DNA of 63,666 nt, filler included, from Basidioascus undulatus (GCA_000826855.1; 8 parts of 8 records of this genome joined end to end with filler, not necessarily neighbours in it), one strand, 5' to 3'; shown: positions 871 through 58,673, counted from the whole stretch's first letter. Made by a program: numbers and translations. Notes: generated by a model not told the origin, from the sequence alone.

Positions 871-1242
871 GGCTTAGACTGGTTGGGTTGTTCGGAAAGC
901 GAGAGGAATGGTTTCGTAGGCGAGGATGGTGGGGAAGGCAGGCAACCCGTCGCCGCGGCTGACCACACAAAAATGCGGAGCGGCGTTTCCGCAACCTCAC
1001 ACGAGGAGTGCGCCAAGAGTGTGCTCGTGTCCAAGTATGGCTTAACAACAAATTGATATAAGGCGGTTTTCTTTTCTACTCAGTAAATGGAGTGTGTGCC
1101 CAGTACCGCGGGTAGTTCGCAGCATTGAGCCGGCTTTAAATGCAGTGCTCTCACAACGTTGCCATAAATCGTTGTAATGAAATCATCCGATTATATAGCT
1201 AAGCGTCAGAGATCAAAGTGTCCGTGCCAATCCGCGCCCATC

Positions 1243-3089
1243 TCATTCCGCCAGCCTCACGCTCTGCTGCCACCTGAACACGTTCCCCGGGTCGACCTCC
1301 CGCTTGATCTGCCTCAGCCGCTCGTAGTTACCCCCAAAGTACTGCTCCTCCCACTGCGCCTGCTCGAGGCGCGGGTCGACGTAATTGATGTACGCGGCCT
1401 TCGGCTCGGACGTGATGCTGCCCAGGAGGCCATCGACGAAGGCGAAGCCCTCGTCGGACGGGTATGGCGGGGAGTAGGTCGGGGAGGACGCGTAGAGCTG
1501 GAAGGAGAGGAGCGCGGATCGGTGCGGGAAGGCAGTCGCGTTAGAGGGGACGGCGGAGATGGCGCCGTTGTAGGCTGCGGTTTCGCAGATCACAAACTGT
1601 CAGTCGCGGCGGGGAAGGGTGGTGACGCGGTGTATGGGACGACATACCGTCAGACATGGCGTACCAGCCGAGGTCGGAGTTGGCGCCCTCCTCGAACAGG
1701 TAGGTGAAGTAGGAGTCAAGTGCGTCAGACGAGAGGGGCTCGTCAATGAAGAGGGACTGTCCGCCGATTTGAAATAAGCATTGCGCACTGAGAAAGCGTT
1801 CAACACGACAGGGGACGCACCTTGGCGTAGAATGTGTCGTTCGGCGCCGGCCCAGACGTGTCCAGCGAGCCAGACGTAGCCTCAACGCCGTCGATCCACC
1901 CGTAGTTGTTCACCTGCAGGTCGTAGCCCTCGGGCAGCGCATCCAGCAGCGGCTGCGTCGTCGCGCGGAAGTCGTCCTCCGAGCCGAAGTAGTTGCCTTG
2001 CAGCTGTCTCCGAAGCCCGTGTGTGAGTCGCTGCGCAACGCTGAAATGGAACGCAAGGACGGACCTGGAACGAAATTCTTCCGCTGCCGTCTGGACCAAG
2101 GACGAGTACGATGTACAGCTCATCGGGTGGGTTGCCGGCGAAGAACTGCTGGAACGCGTCGAAGCTGCACGAAAGGAATCGTCAGTTACGGCCTGACTAG
2201 CGTGGCGTGAGGATGAGAACGTACGCCGAAACCAAGTCCTCCTTCGGACGCCCCCAGTAGTTCAACGTGAATCCGACAGTGTTGTTTGGTGCAGGAAGCG
2301 TGTCGAAGATCCAGGACGTGACGATTCCGAAAGAAGGTGCAGCGCCGCGAAGAGCCTGACCGGGCGGGACGCAAAGGTCATTCACCCCGTTTCACAGATA
2401 CCGGAGCTATATACGCACCCAGAAGAGATCAGGCTGCTCAGTCTCGGATACGCTCGTGATCGTCCCGTTGGCGAGGACGACTTTGGCGCCTGAAATGCGG
2501 TCGAGGAGAAGCCCGGCCTTGCGAGAGAAGGGGCCGTACCCGCCGAAAGCTGCATGCCCTCCGATTCCAACACTGGAAAAAGACTGTTAGCTCTGACAAG
2601 GTGCGGACTTTCAGAATCAAAGAGGACGCACTATGGGCAGGTACCGGTCGGCAATGCACGTTCTCCCTCATCCCATATACCCTGAATCACGTCGCCTAAC
2701 CTGTTGCCCGTCTCAATCGTAGCCTTCCCGTTTTCGTCCACCTCGATCTTTTTCAAGCTATCCAAAGAGATAACAAGGGCCTCCTCGTCCGCTCCTCCGA
2801 GCCCGTACGCCGCGTACGAGTGGCCGCCCGAGCGCGCGATGACAGGCACGTCTGCCTCTGCCGCGCAGCGAACAGCAGAGGCGATGTCCTCAGCAGACGA
2901 AGGATAGACGAGCGCCAGCGGGGACGGATGGAGGCGGAGGTTGTACGCCGTTGATTTTGCGTCGTACGAAGGGGAAGAGGGGAGGAGAAGCGTCGAGGAC
3001 AAGGAGGAGAGGCAGTCGGTCAGGTTCGATTGTGCGGCAGCCAGACCGAGCAAGGCTGGGAGAAGGAGGAGGCTCGTTGGGCGCGCCAT
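1243..3089 (-). CDS. Secreted FAD-binding berberine-bridge-enzyme-like oxidase (AA7/glucooligosaccharide oxidase-like), multi-exon
   Basis: Signal peptide [26 protein letters not shown] (FAD His), [16 protein letters not shown] across an intron (FAD Cys), [14 protein letters not shown]-terminal BBE motifs AYINYVD and [22 protein letters not shown]. Confidence 0.92.
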
Positions 3090-6000
3090 GATGGTGGTGG
3101 TGTTGAATAGAGGAACTATGAGATCCAGCATGCCGAGGGCAAGCATTTATGTACACGGTCGGCCACGGCGGCGTCCGCCTGGGCTGTGCAGGTTTAGCGC
3201 CCATGAGAAGGACGGCCACGAAGTCACATAACCTACTTGTTCCTCTAAGTTGACCCACTTGCAAGGCGGTCATGAATGCGGACGGCCACCTGACATCGTG
3301 GTATTGGAGTGTGGCAGTGTAAAAGGCGCCTCGCCATCATGGGAAGGAAGGGAAGGAAGAGAAGAGCTCAAGAACCGGTCTCCTCAGCATCGTCATCCAT
3401 AGACTCCAAGTCAACGTTGTCTCAACTTGCAGTCTGCACGACATCGACGTTACCAACAACAAAAAAATTACACACTTTCGCACAACAATTGTGTACATAG
3501 GGTGATCGCATATATAGAGCGTTGGTATATGTGGCTCGAGGGTATGAACGCGCGTGGGGCATGGCAGCCAAGAACAGCATTCTCGCACGGCGGGATGGCG
3601 GAGCCGGTGGTAGTACAACAAGAACATCGAACAAAGAGGAGACCAGCCTCAATAGCAAGCAACAAATATCGTTAAGCAGAAGGGGGAGCGTGGTGCGGCC
3701 GAGTGCCTATGAGCCACAGGGGCCTGCAACCTCGGTCCGGTAAGCACTCTGCGGTGGGATGGAGGGAAGGAGGAACACGAGAGATGCACAGGCAGTGCAG
3801 TAGCAGTCCTCATTCTCGCGGCCAGCCGGCTTGCAGGCCTGGAGTCGATGGTTCACGGTCAGTCAACGTACTTGGGCAATGGGCCTGAAATAAGCCTCAC
3901 AGCGTTGCCCGGGCCTGAGAAACAAGTTCCATCCCCTTCAGCATTCAGCCCCATGCAGAACCCACACAGAAGACGACTCACAGACTTCGTTCACGAGGTT
4001 ACGGTCCTGCTCCTCCCTCTGCTTCTTGCTCAACCCGGCCGCCGGGTCCTTGTCCGACCTGGGCCGGCAACAGGAGCAGCCTACCCTTCGCCCGCTGCCC
4101 TCAGCGTGAGAGCCGTCGCCTGGCCCGCCCGCACCACCTCCAACCCACCGCAGTGCGGCCTGGTCTGGCCGTTGGCCATGGCCGGCTTCGAGTTCACGAG
4201 CGCCGGCTGGGTGGCGGAGGCGGAGTCGCAGCAGCCCATGGCTGGGGGTCGGTTCGCGGTGGTGGTGTGGGGATGGTGGCTCCGGTAACCCGTTGGGGTG
4301 CGAGAAAGGTCGGAATATGTTCGAAGTAAGGGACGAAGCTGCACGATTCCTTTTATTCGCGTCGATGTGCCATGTGTCAGGTGTTCAACGGATCCCAAGC
4401 CGTGTAGGTAACAACGTGGTGTATCGACATGTTCCGCTGTCAGAGGCGGCGCGAAACGGAGGCGGAGGCAGCGGCGGATGTACCCCGAGGCTTCTTTGGG
4501 ATGTTGCGCAAATTGCCCATGGCGCAAGTTCATCGGTACCTTGGAAATTTCAGGAAGTTCTCAGGCTGTCTATTGCTGCTGCTTGACTCCAGGCCCTCCC
4601 ACCAACCCGGCAAGCGCCATAGAAGGCTCAAACACACCGCATGGCTGAAGCGGTAGGCAGCCCCATGACTGTGAAACGTGTGTTCCGGTAGAGTGATTGT
4701 GCAAACAAACAGTTGCGCGGCCCTCTTACGCCATGGGCTGGACGAGATTTTGACAGCCAGACCGCGACGGCAATGACAACTGTGCCGCTTCAAGTCTACA
4801 GGCGGCCGATGGCTACTAACAACTCAGTCGTTTCAAGCTCGGTGGATGCTATTTCACGGGGAAATAATGAATCTTGTTCATGTGAAGTGGACCTATATCT
4901 GTGTTCGTTTCGGAATGCATGTGAAGTGGACGCCATAGCAGACTGGCGAACCGATAGTGCCCGGTAGCGCTGTGCAACGCATGTGAAATTTTGGATGGCC
5001 TACTGTTCGATCTTGTGATATACACAGCCCTAGCACGTCGAACAGCGTTCACAAATATACACAGCATAACTTTGCTCGAGCACATACTCGTGTTCGGAAT
5101 GAGCATCATACTGACCGAGTGAGCGTGGACAGTGGGCGGGCCGCACACACGCTGCGGCGCTGTAGTCGTGCAGTCCCCATTGCGCAGCCTCTGGCCGGGA
5201 TTCCCTATTAAGAGAATTGTTATTGCATTGGTCAAATTGGACGATTCGAACGCTCATTGTGCCGATACTTGCTGAGCGTTGCCTCTCGTTCAGAGGGAGC
5301 CTGCGTTGCAGTGGGGGTCTTTGGCTTTCTTTTTTGCACAGGCGGGCCGCCTAAAGCGTCTTCGTCCGTAACAGCACGCAATGTGGCACAGCATCTAGGC
5401 TACTTACTTAAGGAGGAGGACATGCTGGCGGACCGCTTCGCGGAGCCCAAGCCCAGGCCTTTGGACGTTCTGCCGCTCCGTCGACGACTCGAGTCCCGAC
5501 AAGTCGTGCAATGCAACCACGAGGCTGTCCCTCCTCATGACGACTGACTGTTAACTCATGACTCAACTGGCTCTTGAAATCGGCTCTTGATTGTTCGGTC
5601 ATCTCGAACTTGGAGCTTCCGGAATCATCCCAGAAAGGACGAGGGGTGTGGACGGGGTGTGAAAGAGGCGGGTGCCATGGACGAATCGCGCTTGAGGCAT
5701 TTTCAGAAGATGATTGCAGGTTGAAGCCTGACGTTCCCAGACTGGGAGCATGCAGGCGTTGCATGTGCGATGCATGCGAAGTGTTGCTCAAGCGAGCTCG
5801 GCTGCACCCCGAACAGTAGATCGTAGTCTCATGGGCCTACATTGACCGTGAAACGCACGTTGACTGAGCAAAAGACGGTTATTGTGTCCTTGGGTGAGCG
5901 CGTTCAAGTGTGGTTGTGCATCAGAAGTATACCGTAGACGCTCAGGCAAGACCCAGGAGGGAAACGCAAGACGGTTAGGGAAAAGTCAAGCACCCGGATC

Positions 6001-7987: not shown

Positions 7988-8059
7988 GCGGTTAGTATTG
8001 TCGATAGTAAATGGCAATGGGGGGTTCGTATGGGTAGAGGGTTAGTAGCGGTCATAACC

Positions 8060-8530
8060 CTTCAATACCATCAAAGGTGGCCATCTGTACATACTCGCCG
8101 GACTTTGCGCTTCTCCTGAAATCACAGAGCTTGAGGGTCATGGTAGGGTCTATCAGGACATTGCCGGGCGCTATGTCGCAGTAACCGACGCTGTGAGAGT
8201 GCATGTGAGTTACTGCCGACACCAGCTGTGAGTACCACTTGGAGAGCTGGCTGTATGGGGTCAGGGGACTGAGGTGTTCATACAGAGTACTCCCTGGGGA
8301 CCTCTTCCATGACTATGCCAACATCGGGAATATGAGCTATGAAGGCCACAATATTAGCATGTCGCTTGATGAGGTTAAACCCCTGGACTCCCTTAGGAAG
8401 CACTCCTTGACATCGCAGGAGTTGGAGAGCTCCTTCCCCTCAACTATGAACTTCTTGACCCGCGGTGCCTTCAGCATGCACTGTGTAATGAGAGAGGTGC
8501 TGCCTGTGGCTACGTCGCTGTCGCCGCTGG
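8060..8530 (-). pseudogene. Intronless protein kinase relic (N-lobe to DFG), frameshifted
   Basis: Manual minus-strand translation across two frame changes gives VKKF...KECFLRE, LIKRHANIVAFIAHIPDVGIVMEEVP, and GSTLYEHL...QLVSAVTHMHSHSVGYCDIAPGNVLIDPTMTLKLCDFR. DFG has become DFR. Confidence 0.75.
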
Positions 8531-8789
8531 GGGGGGCAACTGAAGTTAGCGGTCACTGGATACTATTCTACAATGGGCAAGAGCTACGACGCAAGGAACC
8601 AGGGTAGCAAGGGCCAAGTCCAGACTGAGCAAGACAAGAAGGAAGGACGTGACGAGAAAGACGAGAAGAAGAGCTCCTGAGGTGGTGCTGGCCCCTCGCT
8701 CAGCCCTACCGCGTCTGCCGAGCGCTGTGTACTCTGTATGATACCCTCCATGTTATACCGTCCCCGTAGTACCCAGTGTGTCAGTGTTG

Positions 8790-9100
8790 TTTTCAAAACC
8801 CCACCAGCCTACTCCGGCCTCTCTGTGGCCTCCCTGATCTTTGCTACCCCGGGAAATCGAACACTGAGGCACTCGCTTATGAGCCATCCAAACTTCGACG
8901 AGGCGTCGAACTCGGGAGGTGCCCCCGTAGCCCTGACCAGTGCCTCCTCATCGTCGCTCTCCACGTCGGGGTAGGGCTTGCTACCGGAGGTAAGATAGAG
9001 GACTAGCAGACCGTAGGAATAAACGTCGTGCTCGGTACGATAGTGGCGTCATCCTCTTTGGTCTCGTGCATAGACCACCGTGGGTCCGCTGCCAACACGA
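8790..9100 (-). pseudogene. Protein kinase C-lobe relic
   Basis: The minus strand reads RWSMHE (APE-like), then after a frame change EHDVYSYGLLVLYLTSGSKPYPD...FGWLISECL, matching kinase subdomains IX-XI. Confidence 0.65.
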
Positions 9101-9442
9101 GGTTGCTCGGCATACATGGTCATCTTAGTGCATGTGCACATACATGGGCCAAGCACCCCCAACTTTCTCGGAGATCAACCTCGCCTTCTGTCACCAATCC
9201 TCGTGCTACTTCGCCTGGGAAGAAGAGAGACGAAAGTGTGGCGGCTCGGCTCGCCCTCGACACACTTCCGCCACGGTGCAGCTCGTAGCGGCATATTTTC
9301 CCCGCTCCGCTACGTTCTCGACCTCTTTTTGCGTGTGTGAAGGCATGGTGCTGTTCGTCTAACACCCCATGCCGCAGGTCACCCGGTCACCCCAAGATCT
9401 TTTAGGGTGGCTCCTCCGGGCTCAACAGCACCGCCCGGGGGA

Positions 9443-9550
9443 ACTGGCGTGGCAGAGATGGAGGAGCGTGACCCAGCGGCAGAGAAGCGAGGACGGTCGT
9501 CCGGCAGCGCCGTTCCCATCCAGCGCGCATATGAAAGGTATAAAACGGGC
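9443..9550 (+). promoter_or_regulatory. Promoter of secreted peptide gene A (TATAAAA at 9539-9545)
   Basis: AAAGGTATAAAACGGGC. An upstream 19-nt block CCAGCGGCAGAGAAGCGAG (9473-9491) is identical to 10854-10872. Confidence 0.7.
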
Positions 9551-9784
9551 ACCCTTCGCCTGGTTAGGAGTCCCCGTCAACTGCCCAGCACAACAAGCAC
9601 CCTCTCCAGATACTCATCGTCACCTGCAGCCGCAGCGCTCCAAGCAGTACTTTCTTTCTCTCCAGCTCGACTTGTAGCGACGCCTGGTACGTTTCTGACT
9701 TAATACCGCTTTTGAGATTTCCATCGGCTAACGGACGGTGTCTCGTGCACGACTCGAAAACCCTCTGGTTCGGGCACAGACAAT

Positions 9785-10087
9785 ATGAAGTTCACGACCA
9801 CGGCAGTGCTCGCATTCGGCCTCATCGCAAGCATGGCGGTCGCGGAGCCCATCCTCCAGCAGCCCAGGTCCGAAAACCTCCCTCAGCCCAAGGCCGAATC
9901 CAACCTCCAGGCCAGGGCCTGCACGGATACCGGCTGCCGAGTCGATCCCGGCCACGGGCAGTACCAGAGCTGCGGCTCGGGCATCGGCTGCCCCAAGTCG
10001 CACGTCTATGAGTGCAACGACAGCGGCGTCTGCTGCGACTACGGCTATCGCACCTCGTGCGCCGAGTGCAACGAGCTGTCTTGCTAG
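9785..10087 (+). CDS. Small secreted cysteine-rich prepropeptide A (100 aa; predicted 56-aa mature peptide with 10 Cys)
   Basis: Hydrophobic signal MKFTTTAVLAFGLIASMAVA and a propeptide ending in QAR. Mature region ACTDTGC...HVYECNDSGVCCDYGYRTSCAECNELSC. Strong GC3 bias. 5'-UTR intron about 9687-9779 (GTACGT...GCTAAC...CAG). Confidence 0.88.
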   Translation: MKFTTTAVLAFGLIASMAVAEPILQQPRSENLPQPKAESNLQARACTDTGCRVDPGHGQYQSCGSGIGCPKSHVYECNDSGVCCDYGYRTSCAECNELSC

Positions 10088-10161
10088 GCTAGCGTCGCCC
10101 ACCTCGATGTAGTGTAGCAAAGGCGCTGCCGCTGCACCCTTCCAAATCTAGCTCGACGTCT

Positions 10162-10284
10162 TTTTCCTGTGACGAGGCCCACGCTCCAACTATGCCGATG
10201 TTTTCTTTTTCTTTGTTCCTTCCCGTGTTTTCCTGTGACGAGGCCCGCGCTCCAACTATGTCGATGTTTTTTTTCCTTCCCGTG
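10162..10284. repeat. Tandem duplication of about 60 nt downstream of peptide gene A
   Basis: TTTTCCTGTGACGAGGCCC(A/G)CGCTCCAACTATG(C/T)CGATGTTTT...CCTTCCCGTG occurs twice (10162-10227 and 10228-10284). Confidence 0.9.
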
Positions 10285-10822
10285 ATTGGCCGTGTCACCT
10301 GTGATTTGCGCCCGGCACTTGTCGATTTCAAAGTCGTGAATGAGTCGAGAATGAAGGAACGATGTGCTCATTTCTGGTATCGTGCCTGAGAGGGGAAATC
10401 ACGAGAGAACGCGCTGGAAGGGGAGCAAATGACGTGAGGGAAAGGGGAGCACCGCAGGGGGAAGCACGAGCGACTTGCCGCGATGAGCCCAGTGCGCGAA
10501 ATAAAAGCGACCAGTCATCAGCGCGCGCACAGAATGCCCGCGGCCACAAACAGTGCGAGCAGGGCGGCCAGCGAGCAGCACGACCAACAGCCCACTCGTC
10601 GATATCCCGTTTACGTGCGATGCCCGGCCCTTCTCACCGAACAAACATGTGCTGTGCTGTATGTATCACCTGACGGGTCGAGCCTGACTGACTTCCCCTT
10701 GACTGATGGATCCGCGCTAACCTTGTGATGACCAGCTCGACCTGGGGTCGGATATGACTCGCTCGGACTGAGCACCGCCATCGAGCGCACAGCCGATGCC
10801 GCCAAGTCACATCAGTCACATG

Positions 10823-10963
10823 GGCTGGCACAGAAAGCTGGAGGAAATGGGTACCAGCGGCAGAGAAGCGAGCGAGGACCAGCGAGGACCAGCGAGGACC
10901 GGCGATGACGATGTTCTGCCGCCGCACCCATCGAGGCCGCACGTCCAAAGGTATAAAAAGGGC
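10823..10963 (+). promoter_or_regulatory. Promoter of secreted peptide gene B (TATAAAA at 10952-10958), with three copies of AGCGAGGACC
   Basis: AAAGGTATAAAAAGGGC. Homologous to 9443-9550. The decamer is triplicated at 10871-10900. Confidence 0.7.
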
Positions 10964-11166
10964 TCGATTCGGTCGGTCGGTCTGGTCGTGAGCTCAGATC
11001 AAGCGGCCAGGATATCCTCCACATTCTTCTCACCTACACGCACACCTTATACCAAAGTCTGGTGAGTCCTCTTTACGTGTCGCTCTCGAGCTTTCATCAT
11101 CGGCTAACGGCCGTGCCTCTCGTCTCTCATGTCTCTCGTTCTCTCTCCCGCCCAGACGCAGGCGAC

Positions 11167-11436
11167 ATGAAGTTCACCAGTGCAGCAGCGATCGTCATCG
11201 CGGGCATCCTGCCCTTCGTTGCCCAGGCACACGCCTGGAGCTGCTTCTGCTGTCCCGACGACTCTGCGCAGAAAGCGATCGCGCCGACGTACAAGTGCGG
11301 GTCGAAGATGTCCGGCGTCAGCTATGACAACGGCGGCATTCTCAATATCGCCCATTGGTACGGACTGTCCAACGGTCAAAAAGACTCGTTCGAGTCCTGC
11401 TGCTACAAGGGCGGCGCCGATGTTCACTGCTACTGA
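11167..11436 (+). CDS. Small secreted cysteine-rich protein B (89 aa), KP6-like cysteine spacing
   Basis: Signal MKFTSAAAIVIAGILPFVAQAHA and mature region WSCFCC...PTYKCG...SYD...AHWY...KDSFESCC...HCY. 5'-UTR intron starts at 11062 (GTGAGT...GCTAAC...CAG). Confidence 0.85.
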   Translation: MKFTSAAAIVIAGILPFVAQAHAWSCFCCPDDSAQKAIAPTYKCGSKMSGVSYDNGGILNIAHWYGLSNGQKDSFESCCYKGGADVHCY

Positions 11437-12171
11437 GGTGAGCGCGCCGCGCCGCGCAAAATGCGTGTCCGTGGTGCTCACGTCCTCGAACATATCCATC
11501 GACCTCCAGACCGATCATGCCTCGAGGCCTTCCGCTCGATAGCGTACCGAACGAGTGTGATGCTCTGCTGCCCTTTTCTTGTCAAGCCTGTTTGGATATG
11601 TACTCTGACGTATCGCTGCCATCTCGTCTCTTTCGATCCGCATGCTCCCTTCCCATCTCCGCGGCCTTGAAAATAGTTACGGTTACAATAGGCAATGTCC
11701 GACCTGATCTTTAGATCTGCGTCGCCTGATCCATGCTCGCACCGTTTCTCTTCCTCATGCTGACGAAACCACTGATCTCCGTCGCGTATGATGACGTTCC
11801 TCTCGGGCAAGGGCAATCGACTAGACAGCCGATGGTAGCGAAACTGCTAAGACATTTCCCACGGAAACCATGTGACAGGCACGGCAAGAGGAAACTCGCG
11901 ATCAAGAATGCGGTTGTCGTGAGAAATAACCCAGAGGGCGTGTTGACGTAGTGGAGAATTTGCTTCGGTAGGCTCAGTCCTCGAGAACGGAGAGCCATCT
12001 AAGAGGAGAGACGCATCGCCCCAACAGTCGGCTTTTGAGATGAACAGGCAGGTCGCGTTGGTAGCATTGTCAAAGGAAACTGAGGGCCAGACTGTGATGC
12101 GCGCAAGTGCAGCAAGGCTGACCCACGGAATATCCGCATTACAACTGGCTCGCAGTGCTGACCGTGTTTCA

Positions 12172-12245
12172 TGTACAGGCAGGCTGTACAGGCAGCAGGC
12201 TGTACAGACTGGCTATACAGACAGGCTATACAGACAGGCTATACA
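12172..12245. repeat. 13-nt minisatellite, about 5.5 copies
   Basis: T(G/A)TACAG(G/A)C(A/T)GGC units in tandem. Confidence 0.85.
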
Positions 12246-12845
12246 AATGACCAGATACCCTGTGAAGAGTAATGCAATATCTTGCAAGACAAGGTTAAGA
12301 GTGCAGGAGTATTTACTCGCAATAAAAGCAAACGAGTCAACTTGTGAAAGACAATTGTAGGCATCAGAGCAAATGACGCGTATGGGTACATGAGCACACC
12401 ACCTGCAATAGGTGGCGTGCGAGTGTGAGAAGGCGAGGTAAGTGGGTCGTGGGAAAGCGTCAACTGTCGCCGCGCGTCTGGCAGAACGGCTTGAACGGGC
12501 ACTTGCTGCTTAGCATTGATGAAATGTAAGTTGGGCCTCAACCGACGATCGTGGTAGGGACAGCTCTCGCCACTCTTCGTTTGTTCTTCTCGACGCTGCA
12601 CTCTACTCTTGAACGCGACCACTCCTATCCTCCCATCTCTCTTGGCTGGCTCTGTCCGTCTCCCCGTCCTCGCTGTCCTCTTTGCTTGTCTTTGCGCTCT
12701 CGCCGTCATCCGTGCATTGACTTGCACCCGCAGCACTCAATTCCGTTCACCCTTCCCAGACCCCGCTCGTCTATACAACACCCGCTCCCATCAACCATCG
12801 CCCCTCTCCCTCCGTCCACGTCGACCGCCCACCGTCGCCCGCGTT

Positions 12846-14518
12846 ATGACCCTAGACTCCAAGTGGGCCGACCTGAGCATGACGTACGGCCCCCGTATCC
12901 ATGGCTATCCGGAAGAGGACCTCCGCCCGCCCGGCGTCACCGGCGGGCGCGCTGGCAAGAACCGCGGCTACTTTCCCGTATTGCTTGGGCAACAGTTCCT
13001 CCAGGGGAAGTACGTCATCTTGCGCAAGCTCGGCTTCGGCGACTATTCGACCGTCTGGCTCGCGCGCGACCGGTCGTACGTCGCCCTATTGCAGACTTGA
13101 ACCCCTTCTCGCGCGCTTCACTGCAAGCTGATATACGCCGCCGGTTTGCAACGCCGTGCAGCCAGAACCGGTTCGTGGCGCTCAAGATCCTGACCGCCGC
13201 GGCAACGGCGGAGCTCGAGCGCGGCGAGACGGTCGAGATCGCCGTGTTGGACAAGATCCGCCTGAGCCCTGCCGCGCCCACGCACCCGGGCCGGCGGCAC
13301 ATGCTCGACTACTTCGAGACGCTGACGCTCGAGAGCCCGCATGGCGCCCACCGGTGCATCGTCACCCATCTGCGGGAGAACCTCAGCCTCGCACGTCTCA
13401 GGGAGAACCTCAGCCTCGCACATCTCAGGGGGGAGAAGTACTCGGGACAAAACGGCTGGACGATGCCGATGGGCCTCGTCAGGAGCGTCGTGCGCCAAGT
13501 CGTATTCGGGCTTGACTACCTGCACACCGAGTGCGGCATCATCCACACCGGTACGCTTGGGTTCGATGGACCCCCTCTTCCTGCAGGCTTTCGGTCGTGG
13601 ACTTACGCGCCCCTCTCTCCCCGAGACCTAAGCATGACAACATATGTTCCGCCCAGTCAACATCGAGCGCGTCGTCTCCACCGAGCTCGTCGCCGAGCCT
13701 TCGCGAACGTACGCGTGTCCGACCGACATCCAGGCACGACCGCTCGGAGAGGTCCCGCCCGTCGTCTCGCAAGCGTTGTCACTCGGCGCCGCGCCCATCG
13801 ACAAGGACGGCGGTAACCTGCATGCTGTCATTGTGGATTTCGGCCGCGGTGCGTCGTCGTCCGCTTCTCCCCCGTTGTGCTGCCGATGAGACGTCTGTCC
13901 GTCGGTGTGAAGCGCAATGGAGGGACATCGCACTCCATGAGGATATCCAGCCGTACGCCCTGCGCACGCCCGAAGTCACTCTCGGCTATCCGTGGGACAC
14001 CTCCGCCGACATCTGGAACCTCGGATGCCTTGTACGTCCCGTTCCCGACCGCCTCAATTCCGCCTCCCTTCGCCTTCCATTTCCCCAGAGGTCTTTCACT
14101 CACGCGACTTGATAGCTTCACCGGCTGCCGTCTGTTCGAACCCGTGGATGGGCCGAACTGGACGCGGGCCGAGGACCATCTGGCAAGCATGACCCAAGGT
14201 GAGCGCTTCCCTGCCGACATGTTGAGCCGGAGCAAGCACCGTGACCTGTACTTCAAGCAGGACGGTGAGCGGCGCGCTTGCCATTCTCCTGTCCTCCACA
14301 CGCTGACAAGCAGAAACGCAGGCACATTTGCCCATTTTACGACCCGTGAGGTACCCATGCCGCCGCTCAACGAATGTTTGGTCATGGACGCGGAGGGGAG
14401 GGACCATTCTGACCGGGACGCGGTAGAAGCGTTCATCAGGAGGTGCTTGAGGCTGCAGCCCGAGGCGACGGCGACGGCGAAAGAGCTGGCCGAGGACCCG
14501 TGGCTTACGGGGGTGTGA
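12846..14518 (+). pseudogene. SRPK/Sky1-like CMGC protein kinase with a frameshifted catalytic loop (pseudogene or sequencing error)
   Basis: KLGFGDYSTVWLARD, FVALKIL, GLDYLHTECGIIHT, VIVDFG, IQPYALRTPEVTLGYPWDTSADIWNLGCL, FIRRCLRLQPE...ELAEDPWL. The DLKHDNIMF segment lacks two single bases at 13628-13643. Confidence 0.85.
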
Positions 14519-15873
14519 GACGAGGCAGACAAGGAGTGTTGATGTTTGCTTGTTGTGTCCTGTGCTACGTTGCGTGCTATGGTGATCTGTGCTGTGCTGC
14601 GTGCTGCATTACGATATATACAGTTACTTCTCTTAAGCCGGGGCAATACTAGGGACAAGAATACCGGCAGGAGCGCGTCACTGACTAGCAGAAGAGTCAC
14701 TGACGCTCCCTTTCACCTTCGCCAATGGCTTTGCTCCGCCAGACCTGCCTCGATCGTCTGTCCTTTCATGAGCCCATGAACGTGGGGAATCGCCGGAGTC
14801 GCCTTTGCTCACCTTTCTGTGCCTTTGTTCACCTTGGGGACGCCCGAACGGTTTGAGGTTCAACGCGATGCCACCGTACGGCCCGCACCGGGCCCAAATC
14901 AGCTTCAACGATCCTACACGGGCGTCCCTCTTACAAATCCTTGCAACTCTTTCATCCTCCACCGCTCTATTCTACCTTTCTGCGGGCTTGATGGTCGGGC
15001 GGCTTGCACCGGGCCGAGGGCATCAAAGGGAGAGCCTAACCCTACACATCCATACCTCTTCAAAAGCAGCAATACGGTCTGTAGCGAAGGGCAGGTGTGT
15101 GCAGGAGTGATCGTGCCCGTCAGGCCTCCCTCTGCACAGCAACAAAAGACATTGTTTAATGTAGATGCGGGTGCGGCCAGCACCTCGTACTCACAGGCAT
15201 CGCCCAGGTCTCCAAGGACTACAAGCGCATCCGCTGCAATGCCGAGTTGGCACGAGGGCTGTCCACCTGTCCTTCCCATGCGTTCCGGTCAAGCGCCGCG
15301 ATGCGCACGCCCTGGGGCCCCCCCGGGACGCGACGCGCGTATGCCGAGAGGAACGTGGTGGTGTTGACTGGGCTGCTAAAACTCATTATTGGCCTCCTAC
15401 TCTCACTGAACGCAACGTCATCGGCAGGCAGCGGAAGGGTGCCAGCGGGTGCAGGGACCAGTTCGCATGCAGTTAGAGTGGCGAGCTCTGCCGGCCCGCA
15501 ACCTTTTTTCTTCTTCTATCTGCACTTGACATGAATGTACCAAGGAAACCTGTACCCATGCACGACGGTCGTGACGCTGTTCCGTTAGCAGTGGACGTGG
15601 GAGGATGCAAAGGCGCGAACTAGTGACAATGGCGGTGTCACCTCTCTATGCCTTTCCCTACGTGCAGTCGGTCATGCACAGCGATCACGGAGGACTGCAT
15701 GCGTCTTCATCATCCACATATCATGCATGTCCTGCACAGAGTGACAGTAGCTCGTCCGGGACTCTGGCCCTCGCCTACGTACGCAGACACAGCTATGAAC
15801 TGTCTCCCTCCCCCCCTCCGACCTCACCGTCGCGCTCCGCTGGCGTAGAGGCAAGACGGCCCAAGGCCGGACC

Positions 15874-55816: not shown

Positions 55817-58673
<2,857 letters not shown>

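Follow-up and report, generated by a model that had tools for sequence, protein, structure and literature searches.

The window analysed here is a stretch of 63,666 nucleotides of Basidioascus undulatus DNA (GCA_000826855.1), a chain of contigs of about 8 kb joined by N spacers. Contig C526 (window 7988-15873), one of the 2992 contigs of the 32-Mb assembly, carries two tandem genes, A and B, both on the + strand and separated by 1.4 kb, each of which encodes a small cysteine-rich protein with a signal peptide; the cleavage sites of both were set by eye. The features of the locus, in window coordinates, are as follows.

9378-9390, + strand: GTCAC-N3-GTCAC pair upstream of A, with a 3-nt spacer
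9473-9491, + strand: 19-mer before A, a putative cis element, identical to the B copy
9515-9550, + strand: CCCATC block and TATA box of A, with the TATA part at 9534
9687-9779, + strand: 5'-UTR intron of A, 93 nt, GT..AG, with the branch context at 9722
9785-10087, + strand: gene A coding sequence, 100 aa, with a signal peptide at about residues 1-20, a propeptide ending LQAR and a 56-aa mature part with ten Cys (9917-10084)
10632-10713, no strand assigned: intergenic piece copied along with A (contig C1524) and in part present upstream of the second B copy (C2463)
10806-10819, + strand: GTCAC-N4-GTCAC pair upstream of B, with a 4-nt spacer
10854-10872, + strand: 19-mer before B, identical to the A copy and followed by a 10-nt tandem repeat (10871-10909)
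10927-10963, + strand: CCCATC block and TATA box of B, with the TATA part at 10947
11062-11161, + strand: 5'-UTR intron of B, 100 nt, GT..AG, with the branch context at 11098
11167-11436, + strand: gene B coding sequence, 89 aa, with a 23-aa signal peptide and a 66-aa mature part containing six conserved Cys and one extra
11167-11196, + strand: putative, approximate chimeric junction zone, codons 1-10 of B, A-like before and Rhodocollybia-like after
11438-11509, + strand: 3'-UTR intron of B, 72 nt, GT..AG, with a joint at 11435>11508 in runs X3 and X4

The pair is flanked by a kinase-like fragment and dispersed repeats (window 8052-8556, 8784-9085 and 15803-15873), and at the end of the contig is a 71-nt element with matches on more than ten others. 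Downstream of B lie a 13-nt tandem repeat array (window 12172-12245) and an intron-containing gene for an SRPK-like protein kinase (window 12846-14518, labelled by eye from its motifs), of which there is a diverged relative on C2321. The propeptide of A contains two 24-nt repeats (window 9853-9900; three in the second A copy described below), and a 47-66-nt unit is duplicated in its 3' region (window 10162-10294).

Five features shared by A and B had been listed in a first-pass annotation of this DNA, and each is present at the positions claimed: the 19-mer, the GTCAC pair, a block common to the two upstream regions (CCCATC...AAAGGTATAAAAnGGGC), a 5'-UTR intron in which the branch context CATCGGCTAACGG is identical in both genes (at 9722 and 11098), and the coding start ATGAAGTTCAC (at 9785 in A and 11167 in B). 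In both introns the donor follows CTG and the acceptor lies 5 nt before the ATG. The upstream blocks are collinear over about 400 bp, with a local alignment score of 94 against 26±4 for 300 dinucleotide shuffles (z 18, reached by 0 of 300); the best of 316 other pieces of the window used as a control scores 41. Divided by segment, the z-scores, which are inflated by the generic cores of the TATA box and branch point, are 14.6 for the promoter, 10 for the intron and 4.5 for the signal-peptide DNA against the same null of 300 shuffles. There is no significant similarity between the mature DNA of A and that of B (z 1.6, reached by 25 of 300 shuffles), between the 3' flanks (z -0.6) or in the DNA further upstream (z -1.6). 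Global alignment identities are uninformative because shuffles themselves reach about 60%: permissively aligned, the 19-mer-to-TATA block is 82% identical (shuffles 63%, maximum 73%) and the whole intron 65% (shuffles 58%, maximum 71%). Conservation lies in islands, with the 19-mer-to-TATA block conserved and the intron as a whole within the range of the shuffles, a pattern that suggests an old duplication of the front end, with selection acting on cis elements.

Splicing was assessed by comparing contigs from four public runs (X1-X4) over positions 9000-12000. The X3 contigs skip 9687-9779 and 11062-11161, corresponding to both predicted 5'-UTR introns, so that the intron use proposed for checking at first pass is borne out in one RNA-like run. 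The joint in A (9685>9779) is absent from DNA runs X1 and X2, and the 5'-UTR joint in B (11061>11163) occurs on an X3 contig with the variants of the second copy; the window copy of B is seen in X3 as a spliced 3' contig identical to it. The 3'-UTR intron of B, missed by the earlier annotation, begins one base after the stop codon, and no joint of this kind was seen for A in the runs. None of the three joints is present in X1 or X2, and X4, from another study, has only the third, at low depth. X3 and DNA run X2 come from the same sample, and X3, provisionally labelled as DNA by guess, is read as RNA only because of its GT..AG joints. The first position covered by the RNA-like contig of A is 9554, although contigs cannot fix a transcription start, and the X3 contig depths (55 for A, 900-4500 for B) cannot rank the genes and give no expression levels. 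Seven variants of the B coding sequence occur among the run contigs, four of them synonymous and three not. For the second B copy, the RNA-like contig continues past the TATA box for some 230 nt on the upstream side (window 10724-10950), which reflects either upstream transcription or DNA carry-over.

The mature part of A has 56 residues and ten Cys and follows a propeptide, as originally described. A full HMMER scan of 1.84 billion representatives identified 40 relatives at E≤0.001, none of which had been recovered by a word-filtered search (0 among 2 candidates). Eleven of the 20 relatives looked up are named, and these derive from Aspergillus (2), Fusarium, Coccidioides, Exidia, Marasmius, Glomus, Gigaspora, Dentiscutata, Calcarisporiella and Gryganskiella; the family spans the Ascomycota, Basidiomycota and Mucoromycota, and its consensus comprises the ten Cys and the motifs GxYCG, HVYECN and CCDYGxRxSC. 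Identity of the mature part to proteins of distant fungi reaches 35/56. None of the 41 alignment members has a Pfam match at E≤0.01. The AlphaFold2 model of A is confident (pLDDT 89), small and beta-rich, with four strands and a short helix; Foldseek returned no match at E≤0.001, and none of its 205 chains reached Z≥2 when re-examined. Three of 48,161 chains compared with the model do reach Z≥2, including PAFC at noise level (Z 2.0, rmsd 3.6, 45 residues aligned). A is a member of a pan-fungal ten-Cys family without a Pfam model. PDB sequence matches of A to designed Cake repeats were rejected as chance. The mature protein has 3 basic and 7 acidic residues, with charges of -6 to +12 among the 34 of the 40 relatives that were scored. 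A levomeric-1 gamma-core pattern is absent from A and present in 12 of the 40 relatives, and a dextromeric/levomeric-2 pattern is present in A and in 22 of the 40. GC3 of A is 0.88.

In three longer relatives (P0005, P0038 and P0039; 198-246 aa) the A-family domain is N-terminal, and in the two long proteins shown it is followed by a proline-rich linker and another region; these longer proteins have no Pfam match. Twelve A-family metagenome loci were examined, and neither the module nor, at a meaningful E-value, a B-like gene was found; in four of the 12, another A-family match lies no more than a few kb away. Metagenome contigs L045, L047, L050, L051 and L052 each bear two such matches at this spacing, and in several of them, in contrast to A, the mature region appears to be interrupted by an intron. 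Two weak matches to an A relative in the organism's own genome (E 0.02 and 0.08) were set aside, there being no Cys-rich secreted open reading frame at either place.

For B, the count of seven Cys in a 66-residue mature part was correct, but Cys29 is absent from its homologue, leaving six that are conserved. This homologue, Rhodocollybia butyracea KAF9065008.1, is the only one found (67% over the full length); B was searched with word-filtered tools, and since such a search missed all 40 relatives of A, one is a lower bound. The mature parts are identical at 53 of 66 positions and the 23-residue signals, which align without gaps, at 7 of 23. In metagenomes, none of 116 candidates from a word-filtered search was confirmed, and the one match among 26 candidates in viral contigs, 19 residues long and running through a stop codon, was rejected, as was a chance PDB match to 3mn8 (carboxypeptidase-sized, E 0.006-0.009). 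A feature search places the BAS4 cluster at rank 6 with 0.83, under the 0.9 mark. The weak model of B (pLDDT 44, from a two-sequence alignment) has a strand at 26-28, a helix at 69-81, a strand at 86-88 and an ill-defined middle; fold searches with a model this poor found nothing. Cys26/28 and Cys78/79 are conserved and fall in the first strand and the long C-terminal helix of this weak model, the elements that a beta1-to-second-helix disulphide would join in a KP6 protein. The KP6 fold, as set out in PMC12382754, has the topology beta1-H-beta2-beta3-H-beta4, in which the four-stranded sheet carries both helices on the same face; neither B nor its homologue has a Cys between residues 44 and 78, and hence a KP6-type beta3 Cys is lacking. 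B may resemble KP6/BAS4-like proteins and is a candidate for a KP6-fold function. A search of 12 of the 21 supplementary files with PMC12382754 did not find the Rhodocollybia protein, and a literature search found no paper naming any of five accessions or locus tags. The mature protein has 5 basic and 6 acidic residues, and GC3 is 0.80.

Profile-profile alignment of A against B gives a probability of only 0.24%, in agreement with the initial view that the front ends share descent and the payloads do not. By these alignments the payloads are members of two separate conserved families and not hypervariable cores. The observation that the non-coding DNA is better conserved than the mature coding DNA was also sound as a pattern, but the mature regions were never homologous, and so have not diverged faster than the non-coding DNA.

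Over codons 1-9, B has a score of 28 with A and of 17 with the Rhodocollybia protein; over codons 10-23 the score with the Rhodocollybia protein is 22 (shuffle p=0.0018), and that with A does not exceed 11 at any of 7 offsets. The signal peptide of B thus looks chimeric, A-like over codons 1-9 and Rhodocollybia-like over codons 10-23. Because raw identity over the first 20 residues is the same for all pairs of the three signal peptides (6-7 matches each), this junction is a statistical inference. The shared signal start noted earlier accordingly holds for the start codons, common to both genes, and extends over only about 4-10 codons, not over the whole signal peptide.

The 32-Mb assembly was searched for further copies at the protein, DNA and pattern levels, and as it is fragmented the counts are lower bounds. 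Exact matches number three each for the 16-nt core of the 19-mer, the TATA block and the acceptor plus ATGAAGTTCAC, all of them in A, B or their recent copies, and the branch context at 0-1 mismatch occurs twice, both A-type. The 16-nt pattern with up to 2 mismatches has 78 matches against 44 for the control; 27 of 75 inexact matches were aligned to the module, the other 48 being left out. Among 49 near-match loci the best scores 61, compared with 113 for A against B. The top four were inspected and are chance matches, the 61 (L081) reflecting a GA-rich stretch inside a coiled-coil gene.

The only further loci are a second B and a second A. The second B is split between C2463 (promoter, 96%) and C1475 (3' part), with the middle missing from the assembly. 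The second A, on C1524, is 84-93% identical and has an 18-nt deletion, an in-frame stop and an inversion of the segment corresponding to 9594-9852, such that the leader, intron and signal are reversed relative to the payload. This copy (L096, positions 1133-1956) consists of six pieces and includes two or more inversions; one of its breaks is near the signal/propeptide boundary, and its left flank reads like the coding sequence of another gene cut by the insertion. It is not an assembly error, since its joints occur in both DNA runs. For the neighbouring kinase gene the best matches are short pieces at 66-89%, with no second copy comparable to these, and the second copies of A and B therefore appear to be gene-sized duplications and not a second haplotype.

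The relationship of the host to Rhodocollybia was evaluated with one marker, an ARG5,6 exon from another contig of the window (gene at 55817-58627; no match above 64% in the search). Among its best 120 matches, the exon is 55-64% identical to basidiomycetes of several classes. Without gap columns, identity is 62-63% to three Omphalotaceae and 68-71% to Wallemia, Botryobasidium, Kwoniella and Dichomitus. In a tree of 36 rows, which included no Pucciniomycotina, the host is on a long branch outside a supported clade with Agaricales, Polyporales and Boletales. From these identities and this tree position the host would therefore be a basidiomycete distant from Rhodocollybia, and its lineage seems poorly represented in protein collections.

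A plausible scenario, and one that we consider the probable explanation, is that a module was duplicated once, long ago, and fused within the signal-peptide region to an unrelated secreted-protein gene, probably B. The ancestral module would have comprised the upstream elements, the TATA box, the 5'-UTR intron, the 5-nt leader and the first 4-10 codons, and a copy of it would have been joined inside the signal-peptide coding region of the recipient. Upstream similarity is far above chance and fades within the signal codons, with none left in the mature DNA or the 3' flank, all in keeping with such a capture, and the locus is one that yields gene-sized rearranged copies, such as the second A. 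Of the two, B is more likely to have been the recipient, since the Rhodocollybia protein matches both its mature domain and the remainder of its signal. Selection would then have kept the cis elements while the spacers drifted, in which case A and B are probably switched on together, although co-regulation cannot be deduced from one RNA-like sample. Both would be exported as independent proteins, with a role in antagonism or defence presumed from their size, secretion and disulphides and from a weak likeness to KP6 and PAFC. Against an antimicrobial role, both mature peptides are net neutral to acidic, and the antifungal proteins described in PMC13525654, unlike A and B, are cationic.

B may also have reached this genome by transfer from fungus to fungus, for which we regard the chances as nearly even. 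Transfer is suggestive because a secreted peptide is 80% identical across lineages in which a housekeeping enzyme is 62-63% identical; its strength is reduced by there being one homologue, one marker exon from another contig and a long host branch. The GC3 of B is close to that of A, so that no foreign signature is left. A more specific form of this scenario, in which a transferred KP6-like antifungal gene was domesticated by capturing the promoter, leader intron and first codons of a resident gene, is possible but doubtful. We would put forward just as tentatively its corollary that detachment of the module close to the boundary between signal and payload is still going on, of which the rearranged second A would be an example.

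A rather unlikely alternative is that ectopic gene conversion between two neighbouring, unrelated secreted genes, seeded by their similar MKF-type starts, overwrote one front end with that of the other, no tandem duplication with later replacement of a payload having taken place. Conversion would account for the similarity ending inside the signal peptide and for its lack in the 3' flanks, and the genes are 1.4 kb apart in a rearrangement-prone region. However, gene conversion over about 400 bp requires prior homology on both sides, and the DNA further upstream has none (z -1.6); the large indels and largely diverged intron also speak against any recent homogenisation.

It is unlikely, though compatible with capture of an old module copy, that A and B form a two-component or synergistic pair whose shared promoter was kept so as to make both together. 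Both genes are spliced in one sample, B has its KP6/BAS4-like lead (0.83), and the KP6-fold AvrLm10A/SIX5 proteins pair with unrelated neighbours, according to PMC12382754 and PMC10346447. In contrast, the second B is without A on the fetched parts of its contigs, the second A is broken, none of the 12 A-family metagenome loci has a B-like gene at a meaningful E-value, and the published pairs are divergently oriented whereas A and B are in tandem. Complex prediction for mature A with mature B gives 0.04 against a mark of 0.34, from which no verdict follows.

The first-pass annotation had proposed instead a reusable expression and secretion cassette into which many payloads are swapped, akin to families with a conserved leader and a hypervariable core. 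The one module does indeed precede two different payloads, and in the broken A copy it has come away near the signal/propeptide boundary. Yet in the assembly search the module occurs only at A, at B and at the recent copies of the two, and conservation of the cores extends across phyla, with identities to distant fungi of up to 35/56 for A and 53/66 for B; we consider the proposal very improbable. That A and B are ordinary old paralogues with mature parts diverged beyond recognition is scarcely credible, for despite their tandem arrangement on one strand, shared intron position and a score for mature DNA a little higher than that of shuffles (z 1.6, 25/300), both have much closer relatives among the proteins of distant fungi than in each other, and their Cys patterns and predicted secondary structures differ (A beta-rich; B, in its weak model, a long helix then a strand).

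Capture of a duplicated front end by a transferred B, if correct, would document at base level how small secreted proteins come to be expressed after transfer, and would place two unrelated weapons under one programme. Transfer of such proteins between fungi is often proposed (for example in PMC13525654); it is seldom possible to see how a newly arrived gene acquires expression and export, and here the junction is placed within a few codons. The conserved islands (19-mer, GTCAC pair and TATA flanks) are candidate cis elements. Both payloads are uncharacterised, and A would be an entry point to an undescribed pan-fungal ten-Cys family without a close solved fold.

Several known systems invite comparison. 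B is similar to the KP6-fold proteins (UmV-KP6, Zt-KP6-1, BAS4, ECP28 and AvrLm10A/SIX5) in size and in having Cys in the predicted first strand (26, 28), at 44, in the C-terminal helix (78, 79) and in the last strand (88). Zt-KP6-1, which inhibits fungal growth, has Cys26, Cys43 and Cys86 in comparable places (PMC12382754); its beta3 Cys bonds to helix 1, whereas B has no Cys there, and PDB searches found no sequence link of B to a solved KP6 protein. A resembles the bubble protein/PAFC class as a pre-pro-protein of about 100 aa with a small, disulphide-rich beta domain and a gamma-core-type motif. That family is described in PMC13525654 as having eight conserved Cys and two levomeric-1 gamma-cores, and A differs in having ten Cys and no levomeric-1 gamma-core and in being acidic; its profiles matched no bubble protein chain and no Pfam or PDB sequence.

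As organised pairs, AvrLm10A/AvrLm10B and SIX5/Avr2 place two unrelated secreted proteins side by side, as do A and B, and according to PMC10346447 and PMC12382754 they are co-expressed, divergent and physically interacting, with one member of KP6 fold. Unlike these pairs, A and B lie in tandem, and the promoter and intron are present in a separate copy for each gene. The literature searched showed no example from fungi in which such a module was duplicated onto an unrelated secreted gene, although one may still exist in print. Chimeric genes and leader shuffling are known kinds of event, and Crinklers, conotoxins and MSDIN precursors are known conserved-leader families, the oomycete Crinklers arising by recombination at a fixed point. 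Like A and B, these families carry a shared front end on different payloads; unlike them, they are large and their leader is part of the protein. The locus described here has few genomic copies of its leader rather than many, and its cores do not evolve faster than the leader (in B, 7/23 for the signal and 53/66 for the mature part). It is a single event with two payloads and not a new diversification system, and it is set apart from the conserved-leader families by a shared part that is mostly non-coding and by cores that are conserved.
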